Assembly: GCA_964406675.1 (NCBI GenBank)
Contig: CAYOSP010000001.1
Coordinates: 16,861-80,860 of the forward strand
Direction: 5' to 3'
From: an uncultured Eubacteriales bacterium
Lineage (GTDB): Bacteria; Actinomycetota; Coriobacteriia; Anaerosomatales; JAUVQN01
Length of the DNA: 64,000 bases
Shown here: positions 4,372-34,587 of the stretch, piece by piece
Position numbering within the stretch: the stretch's first letter is position 1
How the letters are laid out: the number at the start of each line of letters is the position of its first letter
Notes under the pieces: generated by a model
Told to the model about the DNA's origin: nothing
The model's input: only the letters and a program-made list of their open reading frames with translations
Database searches by the model: none
Position numbers and translations under genes: made by a program

Positions 4372-5064
4372 TCAGCCCCAGACCGGTATGGTCCCTTCGC
4401 GATCGCTGCGATGGCTCTCCGCGATGCGCTCCGCGTAGGCTTCTCGCCGGCGTCCGTGCTTCAGCAGGTTCTCGTCGATCGCCCCCGCCGCATGGAACGC
4501 GCCGCCCAGCGCGGCGACGCTCAACGTGTGCCCCGTCTCGTGGGGCACGATGCGGTGGGCGCCGGGCGTGATGAAGGCGAAGTTGCCCAGGTTGTAGCCG
4601 CCCTTGAAGCCGGGACGGTACAGCCAGCCGCCCTCGAGCACCACGGTGCCCGTCGCCGCGTCCACGAAGATGCGGTGCACCCGGAACCGGTCGACCCGGT
4701 TGAGACTCACCGCCGCTCCCGCGAGCTGGACGAGGAGCGCGTACGCGCCGAGCAGCGTGATCGGCCACGACATCGGCATCAGCCAGCTCGCCCAGCCGAG
4801 CGCCTTCTGGTAACGGGGAAGGCGCGCCGTCTCGGGGAAGGCCGCGGCGAAGCCGAGTCCGCCCAGCGCGACCCCGGGCACCGCGAGCCCCATGAACGCG
4901 AGCGCGAAAGCGTTGCAGAAGGCGTTGAAGGCGATCAGCGCTCGGCGCCGGAGCGGCTCGGTCGGCCCGTGGGGGTCGCGGTCGCCGAGCACGTACACGA
5001 CCAAGGCGACGAGGGCGTTCAGCCCGAACAGCGCCGCCATCCGCCGTCCCGCCCGGCGCTTCAT
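4372..5064 (-). CDS. Membrane protein with a C-terminal HExxH (HETGH) zincin-like motif
   Basis: This is the real part of track ORF 4372..5679, starting at MKRRAGRR (ATG 5064). That ATG overlaps the upstream gene's TGA stop (ATGA). It has four hydrophobic segments followed by a soluble tail containing PHETGHTLSV. Confidence 0.65.
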   Translation of the reverse strand: MKRRAGRRMAALFGLNALVALVVYVLGDRDPHGPTEPLRRRALIAFNAFCNAFALAFMGLAVPGVALGGLGFAAAFPETARLPRYQKALGWASWLMPMSWPITLLGAYALLVQLAGAAVSLNRVDRFRVHRIFVDAATGTVVLEGGWLYRPGFKGGYNLGNFAFITPGAHRIVPHETGHTLSVAALGGAFHAAGAIDENLLKHGRRREAYAERIAESHRSDREGTIPVWG

Positions 5065-13782: not shown

Positions 13783-15357
13783 TCAGCCGGGGAAGGACAT
13801 CGCCTCGATGAAGCGCTGCCGGAAGCGCTCGTGAGCGGCCAGGTCCAGCGCTTTCACCCTCCCCGCGACCCGCTCGACGTCCTCCATCCCCGAGGGCTCC
13901 ACCGCGATGATCTCGGCTCCCGCCTTGGCCGCGTTACCCACGAACTCGATCCGTTCACGCCATTCGGGCGGGAACATGCCCATGCGCACGAGCGCGCTGG
14001 GCCGCAGGTGGAGACCGAATCCGCCGGCGACGATCACCTCGGCGACGTCGGAGGCCGACACGCCCCCCTCGTCGAGCAGTACGTCGATGCCCGCCCTGAT
14101 CGCGCCTTTGGCGAGCTGCACCTCTCGGACGTCCTTCTGCGTGAGATAGATGCCTCGGCCCTCGTCCAGCCACACCCGGCGGCCCTCGGGGGTCTCGGCT
14201 ATCCGGTGCGCGAGCCGGTCGCCGGTGTCGACGATCCGACCTCCGACGTCGAGGACGCCGCGCTCGAGCAGCGCCGCGACGAGATCGATCACGCCGCTCC
14301 CGCAGATGCCCGTGGGCGGGGCGCCCGCGATGGTGTGCAGGCGCAGGACGCCGCCCTCGATGTCCACCCGCTCCACCGCGCCGGCGGTCGCTCGCATCCC
14401 CTTCTCGATCGTGGCGCCCTCCAGCGCGGGCCCCGCCGCCGTGGAGGCGGCGATCATCCGACCGGACGGGAGCTTGAGCACGATCTCGCCGTTCGTCCCC
14501 ACGTCGACGTAGAGCACGGCGCCGTCATGGTCCTCGAGCCCCACCGCCAGCAGGCCGGCGGTGACGTCCGGTCCCACGAACACGGACACGGCGGGCGGCA
14601 CGCGGACCCGGGTCCTGCCGAACAACTCCAGGCCGATCCGATCGGCCGGCTCGGACCGCGCACCGGTGAACGCGGGCTCGTAGGGCGACGAGGTGAGTCC
14701 CGACGTGGGCTCGCCGAGGAACATGTGCATCATCACGGTGTTCCCGACCGCCACCACGTCCGACACGTCGGCCGGGTCCGCGCCGTGTCTCGCCAGGATC
14801 TCCTCGCTGAGCGAGCCGACGTGGCGCACCAGCACGTCGTGGAGCGCTCCCTCCTCGCCGCGGGCGGCGAGTCGGGACATGACGTCGTCACCGTAGCGGA
14901 CCTGCGGGTTGAGCGCTCCGGCGTGCCCGAGCTCGCGAGCGCTCGCCCGATCGACCAAGCCGACGGCGAGGGTGGTCGTGCCCACGTCGACGACCACGGC
15001 GAGTCCGGAGGCTCTGGGAGCCGTGGCGCGCGGACGCGGGCCTAGGGAGTGCGCCACGAGCTGCGGGTCCTCGACCTGCGGCCGCCCGAGCACCTCAGTC
15101 ACACGCACGTCCCCGCTGAATCGAGCACGACAGGCGAGCCGGACGCCCTCGGCGATCTCCGCCGGGGAGAGCAGCGCACGCTCCACGGGAGTGGGATCGA
15201 GCAACTCGCCGGACACGCGCACCCGGCACCTGCCGCAGGTGCCGCGGCCGCCGCATGGAGCTTCCATCGGGAACCCCGCGCGCGCGGCGACCTGCAGGAC
15301 GGAGACGCCGGCCTCTGCGTCGACCGTCGTCCCGTCGGGGAAGGTCACCGCGGGCAC
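13783..15357 (-). CDS. RACo-like protein: N-terminal plant-type 2Fe-2S ferredoxin fused to a DUF4445/ASKHA ATPase
   Basis: Track ORF of 524 aa with CGGRGTCGRCRV...LACRA, then VDVGTTTLAV, GNTVMMHMFLG, DVGTNGEIVL, PTGICGSGVID and AGGFG. Confidence 0.8.
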   Translation of the reverse strand: MPAVTFPDGTTVDAEAGVSVLQVAARAGFPMEAPCGGRGTCGRCRVRVSGELLDPTPVERALLSPAEIAEGVRLACRARFSGDVRVTEVLGRPQVEDPQLVAHSLGPRPRATAPRASGLAVVVDVGTTTLAVGLVDRASARELGHAGALNPQVRYGDDVMSRLAARGEEGALHDVLVRHVGSLSEEILARHGADPADVSDVVAVGNTVMMHMFLGEPTSGLTSSPYEPAFTGARSEPADRIGLELFGRTRVRVPPAVSVFVGPDVTAGLLAVGLEDHDGAVLYVDVGTNGEIVLKLPSGRMIAASTAAGPALEGATIEKGMRATAGAVERVDIEGGVLRLHTIAGAPPTGICGSGVIDLVAALLERGVLDVGGRIVDTGDRLAHRIAETPEGRRVWLDEGRGIYLTQKDVREVQLAKGAIRAGIDVLLDEGGVSASDVAEVIVAGGFGLHLRPSALVRMGMFPPEWRERIEFVGNAAKAGAEIIAVEPSGMEDVERVAGRVKALDLAAHERFRQRFIEAMSFPG

Positions 15358-28562: not shown

Positions 28563-29165
28563 ATGAAGACCCGACTCGGTCCGCAGAACCGGCTCTTCCC
28601 CGCCCCCGTCCCGCTCGTGCTGAGCGGGACGGGCGACGAGGCGAGCATGCTCGCCGTCGCCTGGGCGACCATCGTCGGCAGCAAGCCGCCCTCCCTCGCG
28701 ATGGCGCTCGGGCGTCGCCATCACACGGTCGACCTCATCGAGCGCACCGGCGAGTTCACCGTCAACGTCCCCCCGGTCTCCCTCGCCGAGGAGGTCGACT
28801 ACTGCGGGCTCGTGTCCGGCCGCGACGTCGACAAGACGGCACGCTGTGGCTTCACCCTGCTGCCGTCCGCCGTGGTCGGCCCGCCGATCATCGAGGAGTG
28901 CCCCTACAACCTGGAGTGCCGCGTCTCGGAGACGTTCGACATGCCCACGGGCACCCTGCTCGTGGTCGGCGAGGTCCTGGAGGCGCACGCGGACGCCGAG
29001 CTCGTCCGGGAGAACGGGCGCGACGTCGACATCGCCCGCCTCGACCCCCTCGTCTACATCACCGGCAACCGCGAGTACTTCCGGCTCGGCGAGCGCGTGG
29101 CCGACGCCTACCGCATCGGGCGCCGGCTCGACGAGGAGTCGGAAGCCGAGCACGAGGACGGGTGA
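28563..29165 (+). CDS. Flavin reductase-like (FMN-binding split-barrel) protein
   Basis: ATG 28563 follows GAGGAGG. The sequence (PVPLVLSGT, MLAVAWATIVGSKPP, TGEFTVNVP) is consistent with the family. Confidence 0.8.
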   Translation: MKTRLGPQNRLFPAPVPLVLSGTGDEASMLAVAWATIVGSKPPSLAMALGRRHHTVDLIERTGEFTVNVPPVSLAEEVDYCGLVSGRDVDKTARCGFTLLPSAVVGPPIIEECPYNLECRVSETFDMPTGTLLVVGEVLEAHADAELVRENGRDVDIARLDPLVYITGNREYFRLGERVADAYRIGRRLDEESEAEHEDG

Positions 29166-30232
29166 CGGTCCGGGGTCCGGCGCCGGAGCGGGATCAGGTA
29201 CCCGACCCCGCGCGCGAGGTGCAGCGACACGAGCACGAGCGGGGCGAGCACGCCGACGCACGCGTCGCGACGCGTGAATGCCCCTCGGACGCCGACCGAG
29301 ACCGCCGCGGCGAGGTAGGCGGCGACCGGGGCGAGCGCCCACCTGCGCAGACGACGTGACGCGAGTGACGCGACCGCCAGCACCGGCAGGGCGACGGTCC
29401 ACGCCGCGACCGCGAGGTGGGCGCCGCGATGCGTCCCCAACCGGCGGCTCGCGGACCCCATCGCCACGTTCCGGCGCATGAACGCGCGGTACGTGGTGTC
29501 ACGCAGGTGCCCCACCCGCGCGTCCGGGGCGTGGACCACCCGGTACCCGGCCGCTTCCACCCTCCGACCCAGATCGACGTCCTCGTGCACCTCGAGCGAC
29601 TCGTCGAAGACGTGCGGGACCCCCACGGAGGCGGCTCTCGGGATCGCCGCGGAGGCGGCCACCTCGGCCGGGATCATCATGTTCCACAGCTTCGGATAGT
29701 AGCGCCCGGCACGGACCCCGGTCCTCCCTCCCCGCACGCTCCCGGCGCCGAGCGGCGAGTGCAGCACGACGTCCAGCGCCACGTCGAACGACGAACGGGA
29801 TTCGAGTTCGTCGGAGCCTCCGAGCAGACCGAGCCCGGGCTCCGACGCGATCGCCTCGTCCATACGGGTCAGCCAGTCTCGCCGGAACAGCGCGTCGTCG
29901 TCCGCGAAGGCGAGGTACCGGCCGCGCGCCTGATCGCAGGCCCGGTTGAGCGCGACGGAGCGGTTCGGCCCGACGGTGCGGCCCGGCCCTTCGACCGCAG
30001 CCTCCCTCGGGCACCCCACCCAGCGGATCGGGAACGGGGCGACCTCCGCCGCGCGCCGCACGATCGCGCGAGCCTCCTCGTCGTCCGTCGCTCCGGCGAC
30101 CAGCGCTTCGACACGGTCGGCGGGGTAGTCGAGGGCACACAGCGTGCGCAGCGAATCCGCGAGCATGCAGCCGCCGTGGACCACCGGCAGGATGACGCTA
30201 TAGCGCGGCGCGCCAGGGGCCTCAGCGGTCAC
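29108..30232 (-). CDS. Family 2 glycosyltransferase with a C-terminal membrane segment
   Basis: Motifs are YSVILPVVHGG and the DxD-type FADDDALF. The hydrophobic tail is AVAAWTVALPVLAVASL. The GTG start overlaps the upstream radical SAM gene by 11 nt. Confidence 0.8.
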   Translation of the reverse strand: MTAEAPGAPRYSVILPVVHGGCMLADSLRTLCALDYPADRVEALVAGATDDEEARAIVRRAAEVAPFPIRWVGCPREAAVEGPGRTVGPNRSVALNRACDQARGRYLAFADDDALFRRDWLTRMDEAIASEPGLGLLGGSDELESRSSFDVALDVVLHSPLGAGSVRGGRTGVRAGRYYPKLWNMMIPAEVAASAAIPRAASVGVPHVFDESLEVHEDVDLGRRVEAAGYRVVHAPDARVGHLRDTTYRAFMRRNVAMGSASRRLGTHRGAHLAVAAWTVALPVLAVASLASRRLRRWALAPVAAYLAAAVSVGVRGAFTRRDACVGVLAPLVLVSLHLARGVGYLIPLRRRTPDRHPSSCSASDSSSSRRPMR

Positions 30233-31352
30233 GGAACCACTCCGTCTCGATCACGGTGTCCTCGGCGCGCATCCCGCGATACGTGCAGCGGCTGCAGTGG
30301 TGGTATTCGTTGCGACCCTCGTGGAAGCCGTCGCGGAACGCTCGGGCCACGGGACCGCGCCAGATCCGCAGCCACCCGCCGTCCTCCGGATACGACCCGA
30401 ACGCGAGCGACGCGTCGTGGTCGTACTCGCACGAGATCACGGTCCCGCGCGCGTCCACGGTGATCCGCCGCGAGGGCCGATCGCATCCGAACCGCGCCGC
30501 ATCCGGCCCATCCCCGGACCGCCGGTAGCGCGACGCCTCCGGCTCGTAACGGTCACCGAGCTCGAAGGGCTCGTCGACCGTCTTGACGCTGAAGACGTCG
30601 ACGCCCGCGTCGCGAGCCCATCGGCGAGCGGCCTCGAGTTCGTGTTCGTTGTGGTGCATGATCACGAACCGCATGTTCAGCCTCGGTGTCGGACTCCCGA
30701 GACGTTCGCGGGCGGCGACGAGTCCCAGGACGTTGGCACGCGCGGTCTCGAGGTCCCCGCCCACGCGGTACCGCTCGTAGGTCTCCTGGGTGGCGCCGTC
30801 GACGGCGAACACGATGCTGTCCAGCCCGCTGCGCACCATCCGTTCCGCCCCGTCGGGCCCCAGCGGCACGTTGCCGTTCGTGCTCACATGCACCGCGATC
30901 CCCGCCCGCTTCGCGTACCCGACCATCTCCCAGAGGTCCGGGTGCAGCAGCGGCTCTCCCCACATCCACAGCACCATGAGCAGCACGCTGTCGGCGAGCT
31001 CGTCGACCAGGCTGCGGAACACCGCGGGGTCCATGTACGTGCCGTACGCGCGAGACCCTTGCTCGCGCCTCACGCGGGTGAGGCACTGTGGGCACGACAG
31101 GTTGCAGTGATCGACGGGCTCGACCTGCGCGATGAGCGGCCCCGCGGTCGGGTGGGAGCGGCCGAGCGTCCGGTCCAGACCGGCTGCGATGAGGTTCCTG
31201 CGCCTCGCCCGTCCCACGGGCCGCACCTCGAACGGCAACCCTTCGAATCGGAAGCGGAAGCGGTCTCTGAGCACGAGGTCCGCGACCTTCCACGCATCCG
31301 CCGCCGCCGAGCGCTTCTTGGTCGTCACCCACCACTCCCGCATCGGGTACAT
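30222..31352 (-). CDS. Radical SAM protein with a SPASM/twitch-like Cys-rich C-terminus
   Basis: Motifs are VDHCNLSCPQC (CxxxCxxC) and WGEPLLHPD, with C-terminal Cys residues (FGCD..ISCEYD..HHCSRCTY). An alternative start at ATG 31343 has better spacing from AAGGAG. Confidence 0.8.
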   Translation of the reverse strand: MYPMREWWVTTKKRSAAADAWKVADLVLRDRFRFRFEGLPFEVRPVGRARRRNLIAAGLDRTLGRSHPTAGPLIAQVEPVDHCNLSCPQCLTRVRREQGSRAYGTYMDPAVFRSLVDELADSVLLMVLWMWGEPLLHPDLWEMVGYAKRAGIAVHVSTNGNVPLGPDGAERMVRSGLDSIVFAVDGATQETYERYRVGGDLETARANVLGLVAARERLGSPTPRLNMRFVIMHHNEHELEAARRWARDAGVDVFSVKTVDEPFELGDRYEPEASRYRRSGDGPDAARFGCDRPSRRITVDARGTVISCEYDHDASLAFGSYPEDGGWLRIWRGPVARAFRDGFHEGRNEYHHCSRCTYRGMRAEDTVIETEWFRDR

Positions 31353-31389: not shown

Positions 31390-31794
31390 ATGGCTTCCGC
31401 ACGAGTGGTCGACGTCCTATCGATCAAGATGCCCACGCAGGTGGGGCTCACGGCGCGCGTGGCCGAGGCGCTCAAGAAGGCGGGGGTCGACATCACCTCG
31501 CTCTGCGCGTGGGAGTCCGAGGGAGAGGCGACGTTCCAGTTCACGGTGGACGACGTGGCCGCCGCGGCTCAGGTCTTCCAGGCCATGGATGTCGAACTGA
31601 CCAAGCGCACCGCCGTCCAGGTGACCATGCCGCACCGGGCGGGCGCTCTGCAGGAGGTCGCCGAGAAGGTCGCGCAGGGAGGGCTGAACATCTCGCATCT
31701 CTACGCCACGGCGAGTCCCGGGATGGACGAAGCCGTCGTCATCATGTTCACGGAGGACGACGCTCGCGCCGCCGAGGTCGCGAGTCTCGCCTAG
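31390..31794 (+). CDS. Tandem ACT-domain protein
   Basis: ATG 31390 follows AAAGGAG. Two ACT-like halves are present (LSIKMPTQVGLTARVAEALKKAGVDI and VTMPHRAGALQEVAEKVAQGGLNI). Confidence 0.7.
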   Translation: MASARVVDVLSIKMPTQVGLTARVAEALKKAGVDITSLCAWESEGEATFQFTVDDVAAAAQVFQAMDVELTKRTAVQVTMPHRAGALQEVAEKVAQGGLNISHLYATASPGMDEAVVIMFTEDDARAAEVASLA

Positions 31795-32909
31795 ACGACG
31801 CCGAACAGATCGAGCTGGTGCGCCGGCCGCTTCCCGTCGAGGAGCACGAACGGCGCGGCGCGGTCGGCGAGGATGCCGAGGGCTCGGAGTTGGTCGGTCC
31901 CGCGCAGCGTGCACCCGCGGCGGGCGGCCTCCAGGCGTCGCGCGCCCGTCGGTCCGATGCCCGGGACGCGCAGGAGGAGGGAGCGCTCCGCCGTGTTCAG
32001 TTCGGCCGGCTCTTCGGCGAGGACGCTCCGGGCCCACGCGAGCTTGGGATCGGCGTCCAGCGGCAGACGGCCGACCGCGTCGTAGGGCAGTTCCTCGGCG
32101 GTGAAACCGTAGTCGCGCAGGAGGAAGTCGGACTGGTAGAGGCGGTGTTCGCGCACCGGTGACTCGGCGGGATGCCGTGCGAGCGGCGTGTCGCGCACCG
32201 GGGTGAACGCCTTGAAGTACGTGCGGGCGAGGCCCGCCTCGCGCCTGAGGCGCTCGGTGGTCAGGAGCAGGTCCCGGTCGCTCTCACCTCCCGGTCCCAC
32301 GACGAACTGCGTGGTCTGGCTCGGGCCCCCGCGCGAGGGGTCGCTCCAGGCTCCCGGGGGACCTCCGCGCTCCCCGCGCAGGCGGTGCACGCGCCGGAGC
32401 GGCCGCACCAGTTCGTCGAAGAGCCGCTTGTGGGGCGCCAGCCTCGCGAGCGCGGACTCGGTGGGAGCCTCGAGGTTGACCGACACGCGATCCGCCAGCG
32501 AGACGGCGCGATCGATCTGCTCGTCCCGCGCTCCCGGCATGATCTTCAGGTGCACGTACCCTCGGAAGCCGTACCGGCTCCGGACGAGTTCGACCGTGTC
32601 GTTGAGGCGCTGCTGCGTGCGCACGCCTCCCCCCACGAGAGCGGAACTCAAGAACAGACCGTCGACCTCACCCGCGGCGTGCATCCTGTCGAAGTGAGCG
32701 GCCATGCGATCCGGCGTGCTGGACGCGCGCCTGCCGTCGCGACCCACACGGCACGGGCAGTAGAGGCAATCCCGCTCACATCCGTCGGCGAGCAGGGTCT
32801 TCAGCAGGCGCTTACCGCCTCCGCCCGCCACGACGGGACGTACGACGTCCTCCTCGAGCGCCGCCGAGGCGCTCAGGCGTGTCAGCGTTCCCGGACCGCA
32901 GCCTGACAT
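31791..32909 (-). CDS. Putative DNA modification/repair radical SAM protein with a C-terminal helix-hairpin-helix (TIGR03916-like)
   Basis: Track ORF of 372 aa with GCERDCLYCPC (CxxxCxxC) and a C-terminal LLRVPGIGPTGARRLEAAR (HhH). Confidence 0.8.
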   Translation of the reverse strand: MSGCGPGTLTRLSASAALEEDVVRPVVAGGGGKRLLKTLLADGCERDCLYCPCRVGRDGRRASSTPDRMAAHFDRMHAAGEVDGLFLSSALVGGGVRTQQRLNDTVELVRSRYGFRGYVHLKIMPGARDEQIDRAVSLADRVSVNLEAPTESALARLAPHKRLFDELVRPLRRVHRLRGERGGPPGAWSDPSRGGPSQTTQFVVGPGGESDRDLLLTTERLRREAGLARTYFKAFTPVRDTPLARHPAESPVREHRLYQSDFLLRDYGFTAEELPYDAVGRLPLDADPKLAWARSVLAEEPAELNTAERSLLLRVPGIGPTGARRLEAARRGCTLRGTDQLRALGILADRAAPFVLLDGKRPAHQLDLFGVV

Positions 32910-32967
32910 GCCGCATCACGTCCCTGCGAAGGGTCGGCGAGTAGGATGTCGTGCGTGTCCAGTATAG

Positions 32968-32981
32968 CGAACGTGTGTTCG
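32968..32981. promoter_or_regulatory. Candidate LexA SOS box (CGAAC-N4-GTTCG) abutting a TATACT -10 for the radical SAM repair gene
   Basis: The plus strand reads cgaacgtgtgttcg, a perfect inverted repeat matching the Gram-positive/actinobacterial SOS consensus. The minus-strand TATACT lies at 32966-32961. Confidence 0.6.
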
Positions 32982-33018: not shown

Positions 33019-34587
33019 TCAGTCGACGCGGATGAGCGAGTCCGTGGGCGCGTGGTCGTCGGTGAGCAGCGGCACGTCGGCCATCTCGATCACGCCGGTG
33101 TAGAGATCGTCGCGCATGCCGGCGAACCCCTCGATGCTCACGCTGCCCCCCACGCGGTCCGCGATGCGGTCGACCAACTCCCCGCGCGACACCTCCGCGT
33201 CGGTCGCGAGCACGATGATGTTGCGGTTCGTCAGCAGGTTCCCGTCGCCGCCGAGCCCGATGGGGAACACCCACAGACGGTCCCAGCTCTCCTGCGCGGT
33301 GCGGTACATGCTGCGGAACAGCTCGCTGCGCTCACCCTCCACCGAGGAGATCACGTTGTACGCCACGACCCCACCGGGGGCGAGGACCCCGTCGACCTCG
33401 TCGAAGAACTCCCGCGTCGTGAGGTGGAACGGCAGGCCGTCCGCGTAGTAGGCGTCGATCATGACGATGTCGTACGTCTCCTCGCACCGCTGGACGTAGC
33501 GGCGCGCGTCCTCGACGAACACGCGGACCCGCTCGTCCTCGGGCAGGCCGAAGTAGCGCTCGGCCACGTCGACCACCACCGGGTCGATCTCCACGGCGTC
33601 GATGCGCACGTCGGGGTAGTCGCGCCACATCCGCTTCACCACGGTCCCGCCACCCAGGCCCAGCACGAGCACGCGCTCGGGCTCCGGACGCACGGCGAGC
33701 GCGAGGTGCAGGTAGTCCGGGTAGCGGATCGCGCTCTCGTACTCGTCGTCGAGGTATATCGCCGACTGGTGACTGCGGTCGAACCGCAGGTGGCGCGCCT
33801 CGTCATCCTCGGTGACGGTCACGCGGTGGTACTGCGTGTCCGCGCGCATGAGGACCGTCTCCCCCAGCTCGTTCGTGACCGCCGATCCCGTCCCGGCGAG
33901 CGCCACCCCGCCGACCGCGACACCCGCGAGCACGAGGGCGAGGGCGACGCTCACCACGGCGCGCGCCGGCAACTCCCGGGGCGCGTATCGCTCCGCCTCC
34001 GGCGCGAGGAGCGCCGTCCGTGCGCTGAGTCCCAGCGCGAGCAGTGCGACGGCGCCGAGGAGGAAACCGGTCCACACGATGAGCGGACCGATGGAGAGCA
34101 GCGGGATGAGCCAGAACGCGGTGGCGATCGTGCCGACGATGCTCCCGGCCGTGGACACGGCGTACAACCCGCCGGCCGAACGCCCGATGTGCTCCATCCG
34201 GACGGCGGCCAGTCGCACGCCCAGCGGCGACACGGTGGCCATCAGCAGGGAGGGCACGAAGAAGACGAGCGCCGCGGCCACGAGCGAGCCCGCTCGCGGC
34301 CCGAGGTCGGCCGCCCACGGGACGACCACCGAAGCGACCGAGGGCGCGATCACGGTGGAGAGCGAGGCGCCGGCGATGACCACCGGGAGCACGCGGGACG
34401 CGCCCCAGCGATCCGCGGCGTGGCCTCCCAGCCAGTAGCCGAGGCTGAGCGCGACCATCACCGAGCTGATGACGCTGCCCCACACGTAGATGGAGTTGCC
34501 CATCGACGGGGCGAGCACGCGCGCGGCGACCATCTCGAGGCTCATGAGCGACGCGCCGCAGAGGAAGACGATGAGGCGCAGCATCAC
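33019..34587 (-). CDS. Fused polytopic membrane (MFS-like) domain and spermidine synthase-like methyltransferase-fold domain
   Basis: Track ORF of 522 aa. The N-terminal roughly 200 aa are hydrophobic. The C-terminal domain carries VLVLGLGGGT, DAVEIDPVV and DIVMIDAY. Confidence 0.85.
   Translation of the reverse strand: MMLRLIVFLCGASLMSLEMVAARVLAPSMGNSIYVWGSVISSVMVALSLGYWLGGHAADRWGASRVLPVVIAGASLSTVIAPSVASVVVPWAADLGPRAGSLVAAALVFFVPSLLMATVSPLGVRLAAVRMEHIGRSAGGLYAVSTAGSIVGTIATAFWLIPLLSIGPLIVWTGFLLGAVALLALGLSARTALLAPEAERYAPRELPARAVVSVALALVLAGVAVGGVALAGTGSAVTNELGETVLMRADTQYHRVTVTEDDEARHLRFDRSHQSAIYLDDEYESAIRYPDYLHLALAVRPEPERVLVLGLGGGTVVKRMWRDYPDVRIDAVEIDPVVVDVAERYFGLPEDERVRVFVEDARRYVQRCEETYDIVMIDAYYADGLPFHLTTREFFDEVDGVLAPGGVVAYNVISSVEGERSELFRSMYRTAQESWDRLWVFPIGLGGDGNLLTNRNIIVLATDAEVSRGELVDRIADRVGGSVSIEGFAGMRDDLYTGVIEMADVPLLTDDHAPTDSLIRVD

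Follow-up and report, generated by a model that had tools for sequence, protein, structure and literature searches.

A stand-alone radical SAM/helix-hairpin-helix gene of a TIGR03916 sister clade with a putative LexA operator next to its -10 hexamer

Radical SAM proteins of the TIGR03916/COG4277 family, which carry a helix-hairpin-helix (HhH), are described as occurring in about a fifth of prokaryotic genomes and recur in SOS regulons. Spore photoproduct lyase (SPL or SplB, COG1533), a radical SAM enzyme of DNA repair, uses a conserved cysteine as hydrogen-atom donor and is not known to have an HhH domain. The COG1573-COG4277 operon is reported to be under SOS control in Verrucomicrobia, Alphaproteobacteria and Bacteroidetes, and SplB to be SOS-regulated in several phyla (PMC8565304). 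A radical SAM gene is also included in the LexA regulon of Streptomyces venezuelae (PMC9380542). For the canonical TIGR03916 family, an AlphaFold 3 study predicts a tight complex between the radical SAM protein and DUF4130, and compares this complex with RlmN, Cfr and MiaB, noting a narrow channel that would suit single-stranded nucleic acid (bioRxiv 10.64898/2026.08.19.745780). We found no published report of LexA control of a clade of these proteins without a partner, and the literature yielded no paper about TIGR03916, about DUF6504 or about LexA and radical SAM in Chloroflexi.

The gene described here lies on the minus strand of the window (the whole 64-kb stretch of DNA that was analysed) at 31791..32909, stop codon included, and encodes a stand-alone protein of 372 amino acids. 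The start codon is the ATG at 32909; a longer reading frame is impossible because an in-frame stop lies just before it, at 32915. The GC contents of the three codon positions (0.76/0.53/0.87) resemble those of the neighbouring genes and are typical for the window, and an identical 372-aa protein has already been recorded in a public assembly. The architecture given in the preliminary description, a radical SAM core followed by a C-terminal HhH, agrees with the open reading frame, with a Pfam PF04055 match (3.8e-9; residues 41–178, 32376..32789) and with a ComEA-like profile match. The core contains a CX3CX2C motif (C44-E-R-D-C48-L-Y-C51, codons at 32757..32780) that would supply the ligands of the radical SAM [4Fe-4S] cluster: C44, C48 and C51 are invariant in an alignment of 31 members of the clade defined below, and also across this clade and the canonical one.

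The HhH domain spans residues ~302–362 (31824..32006) and includes the segment LLRVPGIGPxGA, with the GIGxxxA hairpin present as LLRVPGIGPTGA. The Pfam HHH_3 match is weak and under the gathering score (residues 302–330, 1.5e-3); when a profile of the clade was compared with the PDB, the C-terminal 60 residues matched the HhH domains of ComEA-related proteins (2duy, 1.8e-7; 8dss) and those of PolX and RuvA. DNA binding by domains of these kinds (ComEA-type (HhH)2, RuvA domain II and the PolX/Pol beta 8-kDa domain) is not sequence-specific; here the HhH forms one polypeptide with a catalytic barrel of the radical SAM type, and is not part of a DNA receptor or of a polymerase or helicase module. 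An AF2 model of the protein has a mean pLDDT of 82, with a modelled barrel that reaches approximately residue 270 and HhH helices at residues 309–312, 320–330, 338–343 and 348–354 (pLDDT >90). The solved folds nearest to the model are HydE, PFL-AE, lipoyl synthase, biotin synthase and viperin, all of which are generic radical SAM cores.

The preliminary description assigned the protein to TIGR03916. This is indeed its best and only NCBIfam match, spanning profile positions 52–381 of 415, but the score (246.5 bits) is below the curated cutoff of 343.5 bits. Five relatives from the same clade score 274–302 and a Gemmatirosa homologue 302.7, whereas four proteins encoded beside a partner gene score 545–691. 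Identity to the window protein is 56–62% within the clade and 34–39% for the partnered proteins. Three extra conserved N-terminal cysteines (AAKYDxxC..SG, GxCH and DGRC) are present in all eight of the partnered proteins aligned, from which we derived this triad as a distinguishing mark of our own rather than a published criterion. Neither the window protein nor its clade has the triad, and 123 of 127 of the best representatives at 50% identity are without it. Partnered proteins also have a 10–25-residue insert in the C-terminal tail that clade members do not. As judged from these sequence comparisons, the window protein is not a true TIGR03916 member and belongs to a large sister clade. Both groups share the same order of parts, a CX3CX2C barrel and then a C-terminal HhH. 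In the alignment 96 columns are invariant within the clade and 68 across both clades, the latter arguing for a shared chemistry.

In canonical loci the partner gene lies directly downstream of the radical SAM gene (8/8 loci; the spacing ranges from genes that overlap by 4 nt to genes 41 nt apart) and in several of them carries a fused uracil-DNA-glycosylase-like (UdgX) domain. In the window, no TIGR03915, DUF4130 or UDG-like gene adjoins the radical SAM gene or occurs anywhere else. A tblastn search with four partner proteins gave no match in the 64-kb window or in the loci of approximately 90 relatives, and no DUF4130 or UDG was present in the Pfam-annotated neighbourhoods of five relatives. 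Clustering of the neighbouring genes did not reveal a recurrent partner either, every neighbour family being confined to at most 16 of 81 loci. The earlier statement that no partner is adjacent thus agrees with both tblastn and the annotation of the window. The lack of a partner was also presented as a peculiarity of this gene; the absence is real, but it is not an anomaly of the locus, since the whole clade is without a partner in the loci examined. The missing partner is therefore a property of the clade and not a local loss. Genes of the window clade are monocistronic and lie in varied genomic contexts, in contrast to the partnered form with its adjacent partner.

Immediately upstream of the gene is a candidate LexA (SOS) box, the palindrome CGAACACACGTTCG (32968..32981, minus strand). 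A perfect CGAAC-N4-GTTCG match had been reported 60–70 nt upstream of the start codon, directly abutting a TATACT -10 hexamer. Both the match, which lies exactly at 32981..32968 (-), and its position relative to the ATG at 32909 are correct: the box starts 72 nt upstream of the ATG, with approximately 58–59 nt between box and start codon. The abutment is off by one base, as a single C separates the box from the probable -10 hexamer TATACT (32961..32966, minus strand), which is arranged similarly in relatives. The leader of this copy of the gene would be approximately 45 nt. It includes a weak, putative Shine-Dalgarno-like AGGGA 11 nt 5' of the ATG (32921..32925, minus strand), which is kept in L002, a 92%-identical fragment that is the only close relative. 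Neither a consensus -35, a full sigma-70 promoter nor a terminator was found between 31500 and 33300 in a consensus scan that is uninformative for a 70% GC actinobacterium. Without a terminator between the two genes, read-through from the co-directional gene upstream could bypass LexA.

LexA consensus sequences for Gram-positive bacteria and actinobacteria have been given as CGAACRnRYGTTYC (PMC2248561) and tCGAAC-N4-GNNCGa (PMC9380542). CGAACACACGTTCG matches the former at 13 of 14 positions and also fits the core of the latter. A perfect CGAAC-N4-GTTCG occurs once in the 64 kb, against 0.09 expected, and at least once in 9 of 100 shuffled sequences; with one mismatch allowed there are three boxes in the window against 4.2 expected. 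Because nine of the shuffles contain a perfect site and one-mismatch boxes are not enriched, the single site taken alone is just mildly significant. The combination of a box with a -10-like hexamer has a single occurrence in the window, at the radical SAM gene.

Comparison with relatives is more informative. In all six Actinomycetota-type relatives (59–62% identity, plus L002) a perfect CGAAC-N4-GTTC is fused to TATAAT or TATACT, 56–104 nt before the start codon. Among Chloroflexota loci, 65 of 78 have, upstream of the gene, a TAnnnT hexamer directly joined to GAAC-N4-GTTC with no more than one mismatch, and 13 are without a box. With both groups pooled, a box fused to a -10 precedes the orthologues in 71 of 84 loci from two phyla. 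Elsewhere the module occurs at 0.02 per kb, a rate that predicts 0.0085 for each upstream region, so that the frequency in the relatives is approximately 100-fold higher; several of the background matches are the same palindromes on the other strand. The remaining sites of this type in the relatives' loci, many of them likewise opposite-strand palindromes, do not precede a recognisable recA or lexA gene. In L002, a 40-nt block with the box and -10 is identical to that of the window (the coding sequences are 89% identical), although the sequence further upstream is unrelated.

The outer bases of the box follow lineage, with AGAAC..GTTCT in Chloroflexota and CGAAC..GTTCG/T in Actinomycetota. Scoring Chloroflexota loci with a 14-mer that includes the outer C/G (CGAAC..GTTCG) separated targets poorly from controls and was abandoned: it fails because Chloroflexota boxes have A/T at these positions, and the valid test in this phylum is the GAAC-N4-GTTC core plus a -10. 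The start codon falls 5–10 nt past the hexamer in 47 of 64 Chloroflexota loci, which marks the hexamer as the -10 of a leaderless transcript. Partnered homologues also have the LexA box of their own lineage: four alphaproteobacteria have GAAC-N7-GAAC, Caballeronia has TACTGTATAAATATACAGTA, and a clostridial genome has GAAC-N4-GTTC twice. LexA boxes thus precede partnered and partner-less groups alike. The conservation upstream of relatives suggests that the CGAACACACGTTCG box is functional. Together with the fit to the consensus, the box and -10 ahead of 6/6 Actinomycetota-type and 65/78 Chloroflexota relatives lend support to the earlier proposal that the gene belongs to the SOS regulon. The proposed link to SOS of what was called an enigmatic family holds up here, but is not new for the superfamily, as SOS control of the partnered operon has been published (PMC8565304). 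Relative to other Cheo-box-type LexA operators (Gram-positive, actinobacterial and Chloroflexota), the site in the window is not unusual in itself: it matches the consensus, and its position with respect to the -10 fits repression by promoter occlusion. The direct joining of the box to the -10, together with a start that has no leader in most Chloroflexota loci, makes for an unusually compact version.

The neighbours are as first described: a fused MFS/spermidine synthase gene upstream on the same strand (33019..34587; NF037959) and, downstream, a convergent gene for a 134-aa ACT protein (31390..31794, plus strand) that overlaps the radical SAM stop by 4 nt. In some Chloroflexota loci, DUF6504, AlkZ-related and MBL genes are found immediately 3' of the radical SAM gene, and genes of DNA-repair type (AlkZ-related, Ada-like) adjoin the clade gene in some loci. 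The gene content of the window includes pur genes, hisG, dnaB, rplI, ssb, transporters and kinases; annotation identified no recA, lexA, dnaE2 or other bona fide SOS gene within the 64 kb. An origin in a defence system (as a prokaryotic viperin) or in a phage was considered and dropped, as the radical SAM protein matches no family in the PADLOC or PHROGs libraries. Horizontal transfer was considered since full-length relatives are only approximately 61% identical. It was rejected because the DnaB of the window is likewise only 63–71% identical to that of the same Coriobacteriia/Anaerosomatales MAGs. From these identities, the gene looks to have been inherited vertically in a poorly sampled lineage.

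We consider that the gene is probably a stand-alone member of the sister clade of TIGR03916/COG4277 that is repressed by LexA and released in the SOS response, a reading drawn from sequence comparison that has to be weighed against several others. The palindrome could be a chance match or the site of a gene-specific regulator, with the gene outside the SOS regulon. The perfect sites in nine of 100 shuffles and the lack of one-mismatch enrichment are compatible with this, and the window offers no SOS gene as a positive control, but such an explanation is highly improbable given a box fused to the -10 in 71 of 84 loci of two phyla and a motif equal to the consensus published for LexA in Actinobacteria and Firmicutes (PMC2248561, PMC9380542). 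A gene-specific regulator, moreover, would not explain why partnered homologues have LexA boxes of the alpha-, beta- and Firmicutes types that correspond to their lineages. A separate question is whether the enzyme needs a partner of the TIGR03915/DUF4130 or UDG type that is encoded elsewhere in the genome. The search covered 64 kb of this genome and flanks of 3.5–5 kb in relatives, and the tight DUF4130-radical SAM complex predicted for the canonical family (bioRxiv 10.64898/2026.08.19.745780) would favour such a requirement. The canonical partner, however, is adjacent in 8/8 loci and never nearby in approximately 87 clade loci, and the clade has neither the cysteine triad nor the C-terminal insert, as expected if the interaction had been lost or had never existed; an unlinked partner is thus unlikely.

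The gene might also be a decaying remnant in this lineage, N-terminally truncated and nonfunctional, with the box a fossil. The other clade members share a nearly invariant N-terminal helix (MDxxEKLxxL...EPAEE) that the window protein does not have, F53, also nearly invariant, is replaced by a cysteine, and in L002, the sole close relative, three indels split the reading frame. Against this, the 372-codon frame is intact, its third-position GC (0.87) is like that of the host, none of the 96 residues invariant in the clade has been lost, the AF2 model (pLDDT 82) confidently includes both barrel and HhH, and box, -10 and leader are conserved with L002, in which the indels may be metagenome assembly errors. 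Decay is accordingly very unlikely. Activity on RNA or a small molecule, in the manner of RlmN, Cfr or MiaB, or the installation of a DNA modification would make SOS control incidental. The comparison of the canonical complex to those enzymes and its channel suited to single-stranded nucleic acid (bioRxiv 10.64898/2026.08.19.745780) are in line with such an activity, as is the generic nature of the nearest solved folds. It is improbable in view of putative LexA control kept in at least five lineages and in both clades (in part from PMC8565304), the fusion of the canonical partner to a uracil-DNA-glycosylase-like domain, an HhH of the duplex-DNA-binding kind seen in ComEA, PolX and RuvA, and the AlkZ-related and Ada-like repair-type genes that adjoin in some loci.

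Under LexA control as preferred here, a LexA dimer would bind the palindrome CGAACACACGTTCG, one base upstream of the -10 and inside the core promoter, and, because of this location, would block RNA polymerase. Following DNA damage, RecA-stimulated self-cleavage of LexA would free the promoter. The product joins a CX3CX2C [4Fe-4S]/SAM barrel to a ComEA-like (HhH)2 that is predicted to bind duplex DNA without sequence preference. Reductive cleavage of SAM would yield a 5'-deoxyadenosyl radical, which may abstract a hydrogen atom from a nucleotide, damaged or modified, that the barrel accommodates, such that a DNA lesion would be directly reversed or processed. Unlike the canonical family, which requires a DUF4130/UDG partner, the enzyme would act alone. 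It most likely serves as a radical enzyme that is induced in the SOS response and has damaged duplex DNA as its target.

The window protein resembles SPL in being a radical SAM enzyme with putative LexA control and a DNA lesion as its presumed substrate. It matches no SPL/SplB model in NCBIfam or Pfam, however, and the 50 best Foldseek matches of its model in the PDB do not include spore photoproduct lyase. A further difference is that the clade has no conserved cysteine outside the cluster motif that could serve as H-atom donor. A broader proposal is offered tentatively and is open to considerable doubt: the partner-less, triad-less clade (>120 clusters at 50% identity) may constitute a self-sufficient SOS-induced repair enzyme, distinct from spore photoproduct lyase, that reverses or processes lesions on duplex DNA by radical chemistry and is targeted by LexA almost universally in Anaerolineae-type Chloroflexota and Coriobacteriia-like Actinomycetota.

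These comparisons extend the putative SOS link of the superfamily to Chloroflexota and deep-branching Actinomycetota, where a large sister clade appears to have retained LexA regulation, but the DUF4130/UDG partner and the additional cysteine motif were either lost or never acquired. The clade thereby separates the role of the radical SAM core from that of the partner, and would provide a simpler entry point for biochemistry: a single protein with a single Fe-S cluster and a DNA-binding tail. The box-(-10) module, probably leaderless in most Chloroflexota loci, is among the most regular LexA operators that could be used to define SOS regulons in these groups, which are largely uncultured. If self-sufficient repair is true of this clade, it would represent a new direct-repair chemistry, and the unsolved TIGR03916/UdgX system in its minimal form, reduced to a single protein.

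The radical SAM gene of the window occupies 31791..32909 on the minus strand, with an ATG start and 372 codons; the ORF cannot extend further because of an in-frame stop at 32915. Its third-position GC content (0.87) is similar to that of the neighbouring genes. The encoded protein carries the radical SAM cluster motif (C44-x3-C48-x2-C51) and a Pfam Radical_SAM match at residues 41-178. Its C-terminal helix-hairpin-helix (HhH) region gives a weak Pfam match, and a profile of its clade (discussed below) matches the HhH domains of ComEA, PolX, and RuvA in the PDB (best 1.8e-7). Both neighbours were found as first described: a fused MFS/spermidine synthase gene upstream on the same (minus) strand, and a convergent gene for a 134-aa ACT protein that overlaps the radical SAM stop by 4 nt. 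Just past the ACT gene, another radical SAM gene (30222-31352, minus strand) encodes a protein of the SPASM-domain maturase type. Its best NCBIfam matches (metalloenzyme, tungsten-cofactor, and mycofactocin maturases) are all far below cutoffs, and the 3' end of the gene overlaps the beginning of a family-2 glycosyltransferase gene (29108-30232, minus strand).

The preliminary description reported a perfect LexA-type box before the radical SAM/HhH gene, and this box (CGAACACACGTTCG, read from the sequence) is confirmed at 32981..32968 on the minus strand. A single C separates it from the -10-like hexamer TATACT (32966..32961, minus strand), and the ATG lies 59 nt past the box. Perfect CGAAC-N4-GTTCG occurs once in the 64-kb window (0.09 expected), with no enrichment in the window if one mismatch is allowed; the combination of box and -10-like hexamer also has one instance, at the radical SAM gene. 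No consensus -35 was found at this promoter, and no terminator was found after the upstream co-directional gene. Classic SOS genes such as recA and lexA are absent from the window, which therefore offers no positive-control SOS promoter. In the sole close relative of the window gene (locus L002 at 144-1264, from a JGI metagenome; 89% nucleotide identity), box, -10, and leader are intact, while the gene has three indels and is split into two ORFs. This copy is a pseudogene unless the indels are assembly errors, which they may be. At its N-terminus (residues 1-24, 32840-32909), the window protein itself lacks the helix MDxxEKLxxL...EPAEE, as does its 92%-identical relative; this helix hardly varies across the 30 other members of the clade alignment. 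It also has CPC where the clade has CPF, with a nearly invariant Phe after the cluster motif.

TIGR03916, the family to which the protein was initially assigned, is its sole NCBIfam match (profile positions 52-381 of 415). It is the best family match, but the score of 246.5 bits falls short of the curated cutoff (343.5). The protein is thus not a true member and is placed instead in a stand-alone sister clade of this family. The below-cutoff score is a trait of the whole clade: five other members score 274-302 bits and a partner-less Gemmatirosa homologue 302.7 bits, compared with 545-691 bits for four proteins whose loci have an annotated partner. Clade members share 56-62% identity with the window protein, partnered proteins 34-39%. 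Eight of the latter were compared (four from Alphaproteobacteria, two from Clostridia, and one each from a betaproteobacterium and Acinetobacter). In all eight loci, a TIGR03915 or UdgX-fusion gene overlaps the radical SAM gene or begins no more than ~40 nt past its stop, and all eight proteins (L084-L086, L088, and L097-L100) have a cysteine triad (AAKYDxxC..SG, GxCH, DGRC) ahead of CX3CX2C, a possible ligand set for a second metal or Fe-S centre. Their tails have a 10-25-residue insert ahead of the C-terminal QLSL motif. In contrast, the window protein and its clade have neither the partner gene nor the triad nor the insert, and no conserved cysteine outside the cluster motif is present in the clade alignment. 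The clade has many members: 1.84 billion cluster representatives, searched exhaustively, include 400 relatives at E <=1e-30, and among the best 150 of these the triad is absent in 123 of 127 N-terminally complete sequences. Because 68 alignment columns are invariant across clade and partnered proteins, their core chemistry is probably shared.

The lack of the usual partner, initially noted for this locus alone, holds for adjacent genes and is a trait of the whole clade at the loci searched. Using tblastn, four partner-protein queries matched neither the 64-kb window nor any of the clade loci fetched, although the same queries match each other (E from 4e-6 down to 1e-88). Clustering of every ORF lying up to 3.5 kb from the radical SAM gene in 81 loci gave no DUF4130 or UDG family, and no family occurred at more than 16 loci. 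The Pfam-annotated neighbourhoods of five close relatives contain no partner and all differ. Less probably, an unlinked partner gene lies elsewhere in the clade genomes. The homologue on Gemmatirosa kalamazoonensis plasmid 1 (L087 3800-5074; 43% identity, 303 bits) also lacks partner and triad, and the stand-alone type therefore reaches a third phylum, Gemmatimonadota; no LexA box is recognisable upstream of this gene.

The box is conserved among relatives. Perfect CGAAC-N4-GTTC fused to TATAAT/TATACT is present in all six Actinomycetota-type loci (L001, L002, L089, L091, L093, and L095). Between the window and L002, 40 nt over box and -10 are identical, compared with 89% identity in the coding sequence, and the sequence further upstream is unrelated. 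In Chloroflexota, GAAC-N4-GTTC with no more than one mismatch lies in the 400 nt upstream at 70 of 80 species-representative loci, 22 of them with a perfect site; the background is 0.011 perfect sites per kb. The box is fused (0-1 nt) to TAnnnT in 65 of 78 usable loci (0.0085 expected per region; consensus TAGAACATTTGTTCTATAAT), and the other 13 lack a detectable box. Several "background" sites for this combination are the same palindromes on the opposite strand. The conserved N-terminus MDxxEKLxxL begins 5-10 nt past the hexamer in 47 of 64 Chloroflexota loci (within L004-L083; e.g. L014 ~4840-4865, L021, and L015). Because the start codon is this close, the hexamer is a real -10, and the Chloroflexota transcripts should be leaderless. 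The window copy and its Coriobacteriia-type relatives differ from this layout, with 56-104 nt from box to start codon across the Actinomycetota-type loci. The Chloroflexota locus L033 has another LexA-like box joined to a -10 (TAGAATATATGTTCTAGTATAAT) at 736-760, 4 kb upstream of the radical SAM gene and before a gene for a 139-aa LuxR-type HTH protein.

The outermost bases of the box differ by lineage (A..T for Chloroflexota, C..G/T for Actinomycetota), and partnered homologues likewise have the LexA box type of their own lineage upstream: GAAC-N7-GAAC in four alphaproteobacteria, TACTGTATAAATATACAGTA in Caballeronia, and two GAAC-N4-GTTC boxes in Pusillibacter. Published LexA motifs are CGAACRnRYGTTYC for Firmicutes/Actinobacteria (PMC2248561) and tCGAAC-N4-GNNCGa for Streptomyces (from ChIP-seq and SPR; PMC9380542). 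Neither chance nor a gene-specific regulator can account for this cross-lineage pattern. By comparison, the predicted LexA box before the window gene appears functional, and the occurrence of box and -10 in 6/6 Actinomycetota-type and 65/78 Chloroflexota loci supports, at the sequence level, the earlier proposal that the gene belongs to the SOS regulon. SOS membership of this enigmatic family is not new in general, since PMC8565304 describes the COG1573-COG4277 (UDG and radical SAM-HhH) operon as SOS-regulated in Verrucomicrobia, Alphaproteobacteria, and Bacteroidetes. DUF4130 has been tied to SOS-type neighbourhoods (PMC3765255), and an AlphaFold 3 study predicts a DUF4130-radical SAM complex (bioRxiv 10.64898/2026.08.19.745780). 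The searchable literature yielded no report of the partner-less clade, nor of its LexA control in Chloroflexota/Actinomycetota.

The commonest neighbour of the radical SAM gene in the fetched loci is a conserved ~140-aa protein with no Pfam match, encoded convergently 0.5-3 kb downstream in 16 Chloroflexota loci (L037, L040, L046, L048, L050-L052, L054, L057, L061, L068, L069, L072, L074, L077, and L082; e.g. L077 3598-4020, minus strand); its recurrence probably reflects synteny common to related Anaerolineales. A DUF6504 gene (Pfam 2.9e-30) lies downstream on the same strand in nine Chloroflexota loci (L053 6095-6469, L016 7053-7433, L022 6063-6449, L024 6165-6557, L025, L031, L033, L021, and L060), directly 3' in most; in L016 and L031 another gene lies in between. 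L070 has a tenth copy, in the opposite orientation. No paper on DUF6504 turned up in the searchable literature. The protein could act as an SOS-linked accessory and might be related to the small ImuB-C-type domains of PMC3765255. In L016 (6251-8293), the radical SAM gene is followed by a metallo-beta-lactamase (MBL)-fold gene, DUF6504, and an AlkZ-related (DNA glycosylase-like) gene, a cluster that looks like a small DNA-repair island. Four loci share the MBL-fold gene and two the AlkZ-related gene (further loci with these genes are L010 1171-2046 and, directly downstream of the radical SAM gene, L004, L023, and L026). An Ada-like gene (AraC HTH and methyltransferase DNA_binding_1) immediately precedes the radical SAM gene of one close relative (L091 3034-3855) and lies 3.6 kb downstream of it in another (L095 8808-9194).

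The window also encodes purine biosynthesis, hisG, a RACo-type corrinoid activase, dnaB-rplI-ssb, ABC transporters, and histidine kinases. Its DnaB is only 63-71% identical to Coriobacteriia and Anaerosomatales MAG proteins, which places the source in a sparsely sampled, Coriobacteriia-like lineage of Actinomycetota with a GC content of 70%. The RACo-type gene (reductive activator of corrinoid proteins; 13783-15357, minus strand), amid purC, purB, purL, and purQ, fits an anaerobic organism. Since the best full-length relatives of the window protein (~61% identity) come from the Coriobacteriia/Anaerosomatales-type group and Chloroflexota, the gene's history would fit vertical inheritance and not recent transfer.

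An AlphaFold2 model of the window protein, built with a 31-sequence alignment, has a mean pLDDT of 82, with low confidence only in residues 1-17 and the cluster loop (40-60). Among solved structures, it is closest to generic radical SAM barrels (HydE, PFL-activating enzyme, lipoyl synthase, biotin synthase, and viperin), and the top 50 matches do not include spore photoproduct lyase. On the comparative evidence, LexA bound to the box would most likely occlude the -10 region, and DNA damage would derepress the gene. We infer that the enzyme would then dock on duplex DNA via its ComEA-like (HhH)2 tail, and that a 5'-deoxyadenosyl radical would reverse or process a lesion without a DUF4130/UDG partner. 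The main reason for interest in the clade is that it offers a one-protein route into unsolved DNA-damage-response chemistry.
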